From Escherichia phage vB_EcoM_Lutter, in sequence record NC_054924.1: DNA of 64,000 nucleotides. One strand, 5' to 3'. Every line of letters begins with the position of its first letter. Position 1 is the first letter of the stretch. Below are positions 39,910 through 41,762 of this stretch, one piece after another. The position numbers and the translations under genes are program-made. The notes beneath the pieces are model-generated. The model did no database searches. It worked only from the letters and a program-made list of their open reading frames with translations, and was not told the DNA's origin.

Positions 39910-39985
39910 TGGTCGAGGCAGTAGGGATCGAACCTACGACCTAGGACTTAGAAGGTCCTTGCTCTTCCTTCTGAGCTATGCCTCG
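39910..39985 (-). tRNA. tRNA-Arg (anticodon UCU), CCA encoded
   Basis: Hand-folded cloverleaf: acceptor CGAGGCA/UGCCUCG, anticodon loop CUUCUAA, T-loop GGUUCGAUCC. Confidence 0.8.
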
Positions 39986-39989
39986 GATT

Positions 39990-40064
39990 TGGCGGACGTG
40001 ATAGGATTCGAACCTATAACCAATCGCTTAACAGGCGATCGCTCTGCCATTGAGCTACACATCC
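39990..40064 (-). tRNA. tRNA-Asn (anticodon GUU), CCA encoded
   Basis: Acceptor GGAUGUG/CACGUCC, anticodon loop CUGUUAA, T-loop GGUUCGAAUCC. Confidence 0.8.
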
Positions 40065-40068
40065 AAAT

Positions 40069-40155
40069 TGGTGGGGAGTGATGGAGTCGAACCACCCGAG
40101 TCGCAATGACAATGGATTTACAGTCCACACCGCTACCTCTACGGGATAACTCCCC
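40069..40155 (-). tRNA. tRNA-Tyr (anticodon GUA), long variable arm
   Basis: Acceptor GGGGAGU/ACUCCCC, anticodon loop CUGUAAA, 87 nt with extra arm, CCA encoded. Confidence 0.75.
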
Positions 40156-40168
40156 TTAATTCTTAATT

Positions 40169-40243
40169 TGGTGGCCCTGGGTGGAATTGAACCACCATCT
40201 GGCGATTATGAGTCGCTTGCTTGAACCTTCCAGCTACAGGGCC
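40169..40243 (-). tRNA. tRNA with CAU anticodon (Ile2-like; Met not excluded)
   Basis: Acceptor GGCCCUG/CAGGGCC; anticodon stem-loop AGCGACUCAUAAUCGCC resembles lysidine-type tRNA-Ile. Confidence 0.75.
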
Positions 40244-40251
40244 AAATTTTC

Positions 40252-40737
40252 TTATTTTATGTAGTATTTATTTAAAAACTTTCTAGCTTGAGTATGGCTA
40301 ACATTTATAGCGTTTGCATAATTTTTAATAAAACCTCGTTCATCCATATTAAAATTTTCTAATATTTTTAATCGTCTAGTTATCTCATCTTGGCTTAAGG
40401 TACTTGCATTATTTTTAGAAATTTTTTCTAAAGACTGCACTGAGTGTTTTCGACCATTAAAATTAAAATTTTTAGATTTTGGAGGAAATCTATCATTTAG
40501 TCTCGCATCTTTTGTATTTTGATTATTAGTTGCGCAATATATGTTATTTAATGAGTATGGTCCTTTATCACCAAAACGACACATACAGTATTCATGACCC
40601 TTTCTTCCACGCTTATCATAATTTCCCGTTGATTTCCACCAATTCAACCACTCATCAAAAGTTAAATTCCATTCAATGTTTCTACGTATAGCAGAATTCC
40701 GCTGAGAAATATATTTTGCATAATCTTCTTTCATCAC
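40252..40737 (-). CDS. HNH homing endonuclease inserted within the tRNA cluster
   Basis: 161 aa; GHEYCMCRFGDKGPYSLNNIYCATNNQN HNH-type motif. Confidence 0.55.
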   Translation of the reverse strand: MMKEDYAKYISQRNSAIRRNIEWNLTFDEWLNWWKSTGNYDKRGRKGHEYCMCRFGDKGPYSLNNIYCATNNQNTKDARLNDRFPPKSKNFNFNGRKHSVQSLEKISKNNASTLSQDEITRRLKILENFNMDERGFIKNYANAINVSHTQARKFLNKYYIK

Positions 40738-40781
40738 AAATTTCTCTACTTATTACATACACTAAGCTAAATCAGCAAAAC

Positions 40782-40871
40782 TGGCGGAGGCGATAGGATT
40801 TGAACCTATGAGTCGCCGGAGCGACTGCCGGTTTTCAAGACCGGTGCATTAAACCACTCTGCCACGCCTCC
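40782..40871 (-). tRNA. tRNA-Ser (anticodon UGA), long variable arm
   Basis: Acceptor GGAGGCG/CGCCUCC, anticodon loop CUUGAAA, CCA encoded. Confidence 0.8.
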
Positions 40872-40873
40872 AG

Positions 40874-40947
40874 TCTCCGCGGCAGGATTTGAACCTGCGA
40901 CATTCTGCTCCCAAAGCAGACGCTCTACCAAACTGAGCTACACGGAG
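40874..40947 (-). tRNA. tRNA-Pro (anticodon UGG)
   Basis: Acceptor CUCCGUG/CGCGGAG, anticodon loop UUUGGGA, T-loop GGUUCAAAUCC; no encoded CCA. Confidence 0.8.
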
Positions 40948-40957
40948 TAAATTAAAT

Positions 40958-41031
40958 TGGAGCGGATAATGAGAATCGAACTCACATCATCAGATTGGAA
41001 GTCTGAGGTAATGCCATTATACGATATCCGC
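40958..41031 (-). tRNA. tRNA-Gly (anticodon UCC)
   Basis: Acceptor GCGGAUA/UAUCCGC, anticodon loop CUUCCAA, CCA encoded. Confidence 0.85.
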
Positions 41032-41036
41032 AAATT

Positions 41037-41123
41037 TGGTGCGAGAAGTGGGACTCGAACCCACAAGGAAATCATTCCGCAGCATTTTAAGTGCTGTGCC
41101 TTTACCAATTTGACCATTCTCGC
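41037..41123 (-). tRNA. tRNA-Leu (anticodon UAA), long variable arm
   Basis: Acceptor GCGAGAA/UUCUCGC, anticodon loop CUUAAAA, CCA encoded. Confidence 0.85.
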
Positions 41124-41129
41124 GCTATA

Positions 41130-41762
41130 TTATTTATTACGTGAAAAAGACTGTTCTATCAATTCTGGACACTTTCGTTCTATCCATTTTCTAGCTTTTT
41201 GTGGGCTTATACCTATTATTTTAGCAGCTTTACTAACCCATCCAAATTTAGAATAATCGATTTTAACTAATTCTTCGTAAATTTCATCAGTTAAAATCTT
41301 TTCATTAATATTTACCAGTAAATGATATAATTTATTATCATTAGCAATTTTAATGAATCTTTTATAGTTTCCGCCTTTACTTAAACCTAATGAAGTAATT
41401 GCAGATGATATAGTAGCCGAATTTAATAGTGCGTTTAAAATTTCTTCATCACTAACATTATAACGCTTTTTATTATTTTTAATATTTTTACCAGCAAAAG
41501 TATCAGTTTGCGAATGGCAGTTTGGACATAATAATCTTAAATTTGATTTAAGATGATTTTTGTTATTTCCATCAATATGGTCTAATTGCAGAACAATATG
41601 CTTATTTTGCCATTTTGAAATTTTACAAATTGCACACTCATATGGAAAAATATTTTCTTTTATTATTTTGTCTTTCAGCTTTCCTGTACTAAAATTTGGA
41701 TGTTTTCCTTCAAAAATTTCAGCTAATTTAGTATCCATAATATGATTCCCAATTATTAACAA
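41130..41762 (-). CDS. HNH homing endonuclease at head of tRNA cluster
   Basis: 210 aa; CAIC...LQLDHIDGNNKNH...LLCPNCH HNH/zinc motif. Confidence 0.65.
   Translation of the reverse strand: MLIIGNHIMDTKLAEIFEGKHPNFSTGKLKDKIIKENIFPYECAICKISKWQNKHIVLQLDHIDGNNKNHLKSNLRLLCPNCHSQTDTFAGKNIKNNKKRYNVSDEEILNALLNSATISSAITSLGLSKGGNYKRFIKIANDNKLYHLLVNINEKILTDEIYEELVKIDYSKFGWVSKAAKIIGISPQKARKWIERKCPELIEQSFSRNK

Follow-up and report, generated by a model that had tools for sequence, protein, structure and literature searches.

Escherichia phage vB_EcoM_Lutter (NC_054924.1) carries a cluster of eight transfer RNA (tRNA) genes and two protein-coding open reading frames (ORFs) on the minus strand of the 64,000-nucleotide (nt) stretch analyzed here, which is called the window. 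ARAGORN and the Rfam RF00005 covariance model were both run on the whole window. ARAGORN called exactly eight tRNA genes, all on the minus strand, and RF00005 recovered the same eight (8/8) above its gathering score and no others. Seven of the eight score 59–74 bits. The eighth, tRNA-Tyr, scores 30.2 bits against a cut-off of 29, and this marginal gene is 86/87 identical to the annotated tRNA-Tyr of phage T2L and 85/87 identical to that of T6. The two programs agree on the order Leu, Gly, Pro, Ser and, beyond the middle ORF, CAU, Tyr, Asn, Arg. These are the eight genes, positions, and assignments, Asn and Tyr included, that a preliminary description of the window had obtained by folding the sequence by hand. 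In the direction of transcription, the cluster consists of the following features.

41745–41751, minus strand: 5′ stub of tRNA-Gln, TGGGAAT
41130–41738, minus strand: head ORF, a predicted free-standing HNH endonuclease gene of 202 amino acids in the tRNA-Gln slot
41037–41123, minus strand: tRNA-Leu(UAA), 87/87 identical to T4 and T2L
40958–41031, minus strand: tRNA-Gly(UCC), 73/74 identical to T4 and T2L
40873–40947, minus strand: tRNA-Pro(UGG), the second of two deep alleles, 70.2 bits with RF00005
40782–40871, minus strand: tRNA-Ser(UGA), 90/90 identical to T2L
40761–40776, minus strand: 5′ stub of tRNA-Thr, GCTGATTTAGCTTAGT, nt 1–16 of the gene with one mismatch
40252–40734, minus strand: middle ORF of the trna.1 family, 160 amino acids from the ATG at 40734 to the stop at 40252, in the tRNA-Thr slot
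40169–40243, minus strand: CAU-anticodon tRNA, probably tRNA-Ile2 (lysidine type), 75/75 identical to T2L
40069–40155, minus strand: tRNA-Tyr(GUA)
39990–40064, minus strand: tRNA-Asn(GUU), 74.1 bits with RF00005, 75/75 identical to T2L
39910–39985, minus strand: tRNA-Arg(UCU), a T2L-type isoacceptor, 75/76 identical to T2L and 48/76 to T4

The corresponding operon of T4 reads Gln-Leu-Gly-Pro-Ser-Thr-Ile-(segB)-Arg-rnaD-rnaC, in agreement with the earlier statement that T4 carries Gln and Thr and lacks Asn and Tyr. Alignment by blastn locates the two ORFs precisely. At the head junction, homology to T4 covers the upstream flank, breaks off 7 nt into tRNA-Gln, where homology to T2L also ends, and returns 3 nt before tRNA-Leu. 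At the middle junction, it extends through tRNA-Ser, breaks off 16 nt into tRNA-Thr, and picks up again exactly where the CAU tRNA begins. Both cassettes adjoin intact tRNAs. The flank pattern was found in six HNH carriers, all with the first junction; 5/5 trna.1 carriers examined have the second, and carriers with identical junctions sit on different tRNA-Ser 3′ haplotypes (CCAGTTTT versus TAATTT). Truncated 5′ tRNA pieces make sense only as remnants; therefore, the tRNA-bearing state came first. These junctions indicate that each ORF has replaced one tRNA gene, the HNH gene replacing tRNA-Gln and trna.1 replacing tRNA-Thr.

The comparison of this locus among T-even phages that had been proposed as a check was carried out gene by gene on 14 Tequatrovirus loci with a full cluster, using ARAGORN and tblastn. 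Four slots hold either an endonuclease-type gene or tRNA genes.

Head slot: HNH gene in 7 of 14 loci, none with tRNA-Gln; tRNA-Gln in 7 of 14 loci, none with the HNH gene
Pro slot: RB18-type SegB-like gene in two loci (RB18 and CM8), both without tRNA-Pro; tRNA-Pro in the rest except T6
Thr slot: trna.1 in five loci, all without tRNA-Thr (5/5); the alternative allele is tRNA-Thr
Tyr/Asn/His slot: T4-type segB in four loci, all without tRNA-Tyr, tRNA-Asn, and tRNA-His; the alternative is Tyr-Asn with or without His

The occupants combine freely. Phage pSe_SNUABM_01 has the HNH gene, trna.1, and segB, and JEP6 has the HNH gene and segB. Both window ORFs occur sporadically in close relatives, and at each site other relatives have an allele that lacks the endonuclease gene. 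A search of 50,697 phage records found the Leu-Gly block in 510. Records with tRNA-Gln and its upstream flank (448) and records with the HNH gene at ≥95% identity (62) add up to 510. The part of tRNA-Thr that trna.1 carriers lack is present in 477 records, and trna.1 at ≥95% identity is present in 24. An IMG/VR search with the upstream 97-amino acid protein returned only six loci, too few for a survey, and no 16-mer was common to all fetched loci, some of which are without the cluster. The reverse polarity, with the endonuclease-bearing layout as the original one and tRNA-Gln and tRNA-Thr as later insertions in other lineages, has nothing specific in its favor beyond the fact that polarity is not directly observed. 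It would have to account for 7-nt and 16-nt 5′ tRNA fragments beside the cassettes that are intelligible only as pieces of complete genes, and for the strong predominance of tRNA-bearing alleles (448 for Gln and 477 for Thr among some 510 records). We give it very little credence.

The same search determined the standing of tRNA-Tyr and tRNA-Asn. Tyr plus Asn occurs in 394 of the roughly 510 records and full-length segB in 126. Carriage of Asn and Tyr is the majority state, and T4 is the exception. The idea that the window phage gained these two genes is rejected on this ground. On the T4 side the difference would have the same kind of cause, segB lying where most relatives, the window phage included, have Tyr and Asn (in some, His as well). 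The window set does differ from that of T4, as originally proposed, but it is not unusual: the T2L arrangement was published in 2008, and phage T4_ev240 has an identical layout of eight tRNAs and two ORFs in GenBank.

The head ORF is a canonical HNH endonuclease gene, with nuclease activity predicted from its motifs. It matches 14 PHROG families annotated as HNH or endonuclease VII, the best being phrog_14736 (E 5e-124). Its translation contains C35xxC38, C71xxC74, D53-H54, N66, and H75, and the catalytic His, structural Asn, and metal-binding His/Asn of the HNH/His-Me finger nucleases are present. Against Pfam HNH (PF01844) it scores 17.3 bits, under the cut-off of 21.4. The gene starts at the ATG at 41738, as annotated in relatives, and the TTG at 41762, to which the preliminary description had extended it, is rejected as the start. 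Its closest named relative is F-TflIV (hegA) of phage T5, at 34.7% identity over 84% of the length (E 5e-15). F-TflIV also lies in a phage tRNA cluster (PMC2330249), and it falls in a His-Me classification group that also lists T4 MobA-E (PMC5714182), but it is distant in sequence, belongs to another phage family, and occupies a different insertion site. A placement of T4 mobB at the head of the tRNA cluster was considered and dropped, as the table in PMC2988022 has mobB between alpha-gt and alpha-gt.2.

The middle ORF had been described as a second HNH gene, and this part of the description did not survive. The ORF corresponds to T2L trna.1 and belongs to phrog_16521, a family of unknown function. 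It has no Pfam or NCBIfam match. Among PDB sequences, no HNH family was matched: phmmer and profile searches there gave chance-level matches or nothing. The sole PHROG HNH match is weak and covers residues 7–37 only (E 0.009). Direct BLASTP between the head and middle ORFs is not significant, and a PHROG cross-hit connects their C-terminal parts. An alignment of 16 trna.1 homologs identified invariant residues W30, W34, R54, D57, G59, Y61, N65, and N74. The position of the catalytic His in His-Me nucleases is occupied by the invariant Arg54, so the family lacks that residue. The AlphaFold model (predicted local distance difference test score, 87) has two helices followed by a strand (50–54), a second strand (66–70), and a helix (71–80), which form a ββα unit, and the part C-terminal to this unit is helical. 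Foldseek found no significant match to the model in the PDB, and a BFVD structure search returned mostly unnamed phage proteins. PacI is among the few His-Me enzymes without a catalytic His and uses a Tyr in the inter-strand loop (PMC5714182). The invariant Tyr61 of trna.1 sits in the loop between the two strands of the predicted ββα unit, a likeness that we treat as a lead. The predicted ββα N-domain may weakly resemble PacI (His-Me finger group 20), but no sequence similarity between the two was detected, and conserved Zn-binding cysteine clusters are not evident in the trna.1 family.

The C-terminal part of trna.1 connects it to homing endonucleases. Residues 92–156 are 41–44% identical to the C terminus of the RB18 SegB-like GIY-YIG protein (E 2e-15). 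Four family members match NUMOD3 (PF07460; best E 8.8e-6) and two match I-TevI_DNA-bd, whereas the window protein itself is under the Pfam threshold. Through these family members, the middle ORF is linked to the DNA-binding module of homing endonucleases, NUMOD3 plus a C-terminal helix-turn-helix (HTH). The middle ORF thus appears to have the modular build of a phage homing endonuclease, with a presumptive nuclease domain, and cannot be filed as HNH. The RB18-type gene, present in RB18, RB51, and CM8, has a homologous C-terminal NUMOD3 and HTH and replaces tRNA-Pro next to tRNA-Ser. Its N-domain is the GIY-YIG domain of T4 SegB (83% over 117 amino acids), whereas the N-domain of trna.1 is an unrelated predicted ββα unit. 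The RB18-type "SegB" (RB18 locus 2210–2860; also CM8) is a chimera of a GIY-YIG domain and a trna.1-related C-terminal module, and both genes with the trna.1-type DNA-binding module flank tRNA-Ser.

Homologs of trna.1 at 34–57% identity were found in Jiaodavirus (at two different sites), Kagamiyamavirus, Biquartavirus, Gelderlandvirus, and Chrysonvirus. In 6/6 loci from these five further Straboviridae genera, the homolog lies inside a tRNA array; with the window, this makes 7/7 loci examined in six genera. The neighboring tRNAs vary by locus (Arg/–, Tyr/Lys, Asp/Lys, Asn/Tyr, Gln/Arg, and Asn/Ile), and the homologs often abut or overlap the next tRNA. The window copy is intact. In T2 and T2L, a 2-nt deletion near codon 9 shifts the frame, and only residues 32–160 are still in frame; this copy lies at 460–985 of the T2L locus and is also found in T2 records NC_054931 and PV648364. 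The T2/T2L gene appears to be a decaying copy, as expected of a selfish gene in decay. Sporadic distribution, many sites within tRNA arrays, and a decayed copy are features that would be expected of a mobile endonuclease gene that targets tRNA genes.

Homing by SegB in the same cluster has been shown experimentally (PMC2330249). The SegB site in T2L tRNA-Asn is 27 base pairs (bp) long and starts with the T-arm motif GGTTCRANTCC; in T4 × T2L crosses, segB inheritance is close to 100% and T2L markers are lost; and cleavage by SegB was seen at the 3′ ends of all T2L tRNA genes that were tested (PMC2330249). We reconstructed the preferred site from the text of that paper, using the GGTTCRANTCC start and the differences from the Ser site at G6, A16, G18, A26, and A27. 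The window contains one exact match, and shuffled sequences contain none.

39988–40014, minus strand: reconstructed SegB preferred 27-bp site, GGTTCGAATCCTATCACGTCCGCCAAA

The segB gene is absent from the whole window. With the site present and segB absent, the window phage is a predicted recipient in a cross with T4. SegB resembles the window ORFs in being encoded by a free-standing gene of the same operon that stands in place of relatives' tRNA genes and in its NUMOD3-type DNA-binding theme. It differs in its slot (Tyr/Asn/His) and catalytic family (GIY-YIG), and its activity is demonstrated, whereas for both window ORFs the nuclease function, the target sites, and homing are predictions from sequence.

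We consider it probable that the cluster is a T2L-type operon in which two free-standing homing-endonuclease-type genes each replaced one tRNA gene and left a 5′ stub behind. In the proposed mechanism, the endonuclease would cut the intact tRNA allele of a related co-infecting phage, and the break would be repaired by copying the endonuclease-bearing allele. The tRNA gene would be lost in the process, and the carrier would be immune because the target sequence is gone. Endonuclease-driven gain and loss of tRNA genes had been suggested for this locus. Stubs, common junctions, and either/or slots make endonuclease-linked loss well supported as a reading of these sequences, but the gain of Asn and Tyr falls with the finding that they are the majority state. 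Several points weigh against the proposed replacement. The gene-by-gene sample comprises only 14 loci, and the counts over 50,697 records mix partial genomes with duplicates, which makes them consistent with alternative occupancy of the slots rather than proof of it. The HNH gene is ≥99% identical in 57 records, which fits recent spread and equally fits vertical inheritance in a clade. One junction per cassette means one ancestral insertion, and later spread could be ordinary recombination. Finally, no hairpin of the segB type that would mask the ribosome-binding site was found upstream of either ORF that was better than in shuffled sequences.

Several clusters show changes that do not involve an inserted ORF. 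In phage teqskov, tRNA-Ser is followed by a hybrid pseudo-tRNA in which nt 1–26 of tRNA-Thr are fused to an Asn-like 3′ half with a GTT anticodon; ARAGORN does not call it, and six tRNAs remain. This hybrid reads as a Thr-to-Asn deletion by recombination between tRNA genes. A tRNA-His and a 114-nt spacer are present in OE5505, slur14, and RB18 and absent from the window and T2L. A stretch of ~31–34 nt that tRNA-Asn and tRNA-His share at their 3′ ends bounds the His indel (window 39987–40020), and this stretch contains the reconstructed SegB preferred site. CM8 is without Tyr, Asn, and His and also without segB. T6 has the arrangement Gln-Leu-Gly-Thr-CAU-Tyr-(segB), without Pro and Ser (T6 locus 469–968), and its segB is mis-annotated as "serine recombinase". 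The teqskov hybrid, the His indel between the window and OE5505 or slur14, and CM8 would be expected if tRNA genes were turned over chiefly through unequal homologous recombination, in which adjacent tRNA genes pair at their conserved D-arm and T-arm segments, with the ORFs as unrelated illegitimate insertions. ORF-for-tRNA replacements cannot arise by recombination between tRNA genes, though, and what follows each stub is non-homologous cassette DNA rather than a second tRNA. Deletions of this kind may also have arisen through repair of breaks made by an endonuclease, given the cleavage by SegB at the 3′ ends of T2L tRNA genes. Recombination as the main cause is accordingly improbable in our estimation.

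Codon usage bears on whether the tRNA set was shaped by the needs of translation. Codons were counted in 61 long window ORFs (16,027 codons) and in six E. coli genes (1609 codons), a small sample that remained because the E. coli stretch used is mostly prophage and only its six host genes were kept. Codons read by U34 tRNAs are strongly enriched in the window relative to this sample: AGA, 26% versus 5%; TTA, 41% versus 16%; GGA, 37% versus 14%; and TCA, 30% versus 12%. For Asn and Tyr, the codons that the preliminary description had proposed to check, the window ORFs have 65 Asn codons per 1000 (75% AAT) and 46 Tyr codons per 1000 (79% TAT). Phage tRNAs also act against host defense. In T6, SegB amplifies the adjacent tRNA-Tyr, which overcomes Septu, a system that cuts host tRNA-Tyr (2026; PMC13096335), and the T6 gene is the one noted above as 85/87 identical to that of the window. 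A phage tRNA-Tyr likewise counters a retron effector (PMC11555353). The enrichment of U34-read codons, these tRNA-Tyr results, and the missing catalytic histidine of trna.1 favor a set shaped mainly by selection on tRNA function, through codon supply for an AT-rich genome or replacement of host tRNAs cut by defense nucleases, with the ORFs as passengers or domesticated DNA-binding proteins. Such selection does not account for the exact placement of each ORF on a truncated tRNA gene, nor for the either/or slots. Of the Gln codons in the window, 71% are CAA, and of the Thr codons, 33% are ACA; both are as enriched over the small E. coli sample as the U34-read codons above, and their cognate tRNAs are gone. 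This heavy use means that the loss of the Gln and Thr tRNAs does not look like codon tuning. It fits selfish genes having taken their place, at a cost that the phage tolerates. For Asn, Tyr, and His, one GUN isoacceptor serves both codons of the box, and compensation for codon bias is therefore not specific to them. Selection on tRNA function as the main cause is unlikely, although the two views are not exclusive, as selection can act on alleles spread by endonucleases.

The CAU tRNA is labeled Met by ARAGORN, but it looks like tRNA-Ile2. In E. coli, it is matched best by genes annotated as tRNA-Ile (81.6% over all 75 nt, in 5336/5426 genomes), and AGCGACTCATAATCGCCAG, its anticodon arm with flanking bases, recurs unchanged in a CAT-anticodon tRNA-Ile of an E. 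coli prophage. Within the genome of E. coli WP5-S17-ESBL-10, this prophage gene is the closest relative (20001–20250 of the stretch used); it lies in an Ile-Arg-Arg cluster of a lambdoid prophage, directly downstream of antiterminator Q. The acceptor stem GGCCCTG/CAGGGCC gives the pairs C4-G69 and C5-G68, which are determinants for TilS, reportedly described by Ikeuchi et al. in 2005. The gene is thus closer to host tRNA-Ile(CAU) than to tRNA-Met and has the acceptor-stem pairs of tRNA-Ile2, which predicts lysidine at C34 and charging with Ile; it probably reads AUA. It is only 47/75 identical to T4 tRNA-Ile and is therefore a different isoacceptor gene.

The window phage is assigned to Tequatrovirus, and the gene order, the flanking genes, and the near-identity of the tRNAs are those of the T-even tRNA operon, of which the cluster is a T2L-type allele. 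The T2L cluster (AJ880101; Brok-Volchanskaya et al. 2008, PMC2330249) reads Gln-Leu-Gly-Pro-Ser-(trna.1)-Met(CAU)-Tyr-Asn-Arg-(trna.2)-rnaD-rnaC. Its tRNAs are 98.6–100% identical to those of the window, Pro excepted: Asn, CAU, Ser, and Leu are 100% identical, and Arg, Tyr, and Gly are one base off. Neither has segB. T2L differs in having tRNA-Gln where the window has the HNH gene and in its frameshifted trna.1, and its tRNA-Pro allele, 114-amino acid ORF (70% at the protein level), and rnaD (76%) have diverged. The cluster region matches 1010 phage records, nearly all from T4-like phages of enterobacteria. The best full-length matches, at 94% identity, are Yersinia phage PYps5T and Escherichia phage OE5505; OE5505 has the window layout plus tRNA-His. 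Phage slur14 has ten tRNAs, including Thr and His, and no middle ORF.

Two deep alleles of tRNA-Pro exist among otherwise near-identical clusters. They differ at 12/75 positions, mostly by paired compensatory changes in the anticodon stem and T stem, and the neighboring Leu, Gly, and Ser genes are ≥98.6% identical between clusters. The window shares its allele with teqskov, JEP6, and pSe, whereas T4, T2L, and OE5505 have the other one. The second allele could be a variant that resists cleavage or a host nuclease.

The operon is flanked upstream by T4 trna.2-4, ipI, and 57B and downstream by rnaD, rnaC, and e.8. Its ends contain the following features.

41821–41845, minus strand: putative T4-type middle promoter, read by eye, with MotA-box-like TGCTTTA (41845–41839), a 12-nt spacer, and TATTAT (41826–41821)
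39549–39893, minus strand: 114-amino acid ORF (trna.2 of T2L; phrog_3355), a cassette of unknown function between tRNA-Arg and rnaD
39434–39552, minus strand: rnaD (species 2 RNA) homolog, 85.8% identical to T4 rnaD and 76% to that of T2L, folding z-score −2.86
39288–39426, minus strand: rnaC (species 1 RNA) homolog, 98.6% identical to T4 rnaC, folding z-score −4.55
39214–39237, minus strand: hairpin resembling an intrinsic terminator, with a T run after it, where the operon ends

The promoter region is 95% identical to the T4 segment directly upstream of tRNA-Gln, and the middle promoter of the T4 operon has been placed just upstream of that gene (PMC2330249). A scan for sigma-70 promoters, whose model leaves out T4 middle promoters, found 15 where 14.2 were expected, which is no enrichment. 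The 114-amino acid ORF is a presence/absence cassette missing from T4 and T4_ev240; the window protein is 66–70% identical to the T2L, RB18, slur14, and OE5505 alleles and 92% identical to that of an IMG/VR contig. The rnaD and rnaC homologs both fold far better than shuffled sequence, and neither matched an Rfam family in the window scan. The rnaC homolog has a tRNA-like T arm, GGTTCGAATCC, at 39300–39310. Transcription of the T4 cluster stops after the species I RNA gene (PMC2330249). The whole window operon would be made as one precursor transcript, from the middle promoter near 41845 to the terminator near 39214.

The principle that an endonuclease gene shapes this cluster is known from the 2008 work on SegB, extended in 2026, and the exact gene arrangement of the window is already in public genomes. 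The slot-by-slot picture may be new, and so may the proposal that trna.1 is a candidate nuclease without the catalytic His that keeps to tRNA arrays. A more far-reaching interpretation, which we put forward tentatively and hold to be rather doubtful, is that the trna.1 family is a new class of homing endonuclease, with a PacI-like ββα unit that lacks the catalytic His and uses a Tyr nucleophile, specialized on Straboviridae tRNA genes, and that, more broadly, every endonuclease of the T-even cluster homes on a particular tRNA gene.

In the replacement model, one locus displays selfish endonuclease genes that would be able to erase single tRNA genes from a phage. This matters as phage tRNAs such as tRNA-Tyr serve as counter-defense against host immunity that cuts tRNAs. 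The four either/or slots (HNH/Gln, SegB-like/Pro, trna.1/Thr, and SegB/Tyr-Asn-His) would constitute natural, easily testable homing systems within ~2 kilobases, and the trna.1 family is an uncharacterized candidate nuclease of tRNA arrays. If every endonuclease of the cluster does home on a tRNA gene, the tRNA repertoire of these phages would largely reflect which selfish endonucleases won which slot.

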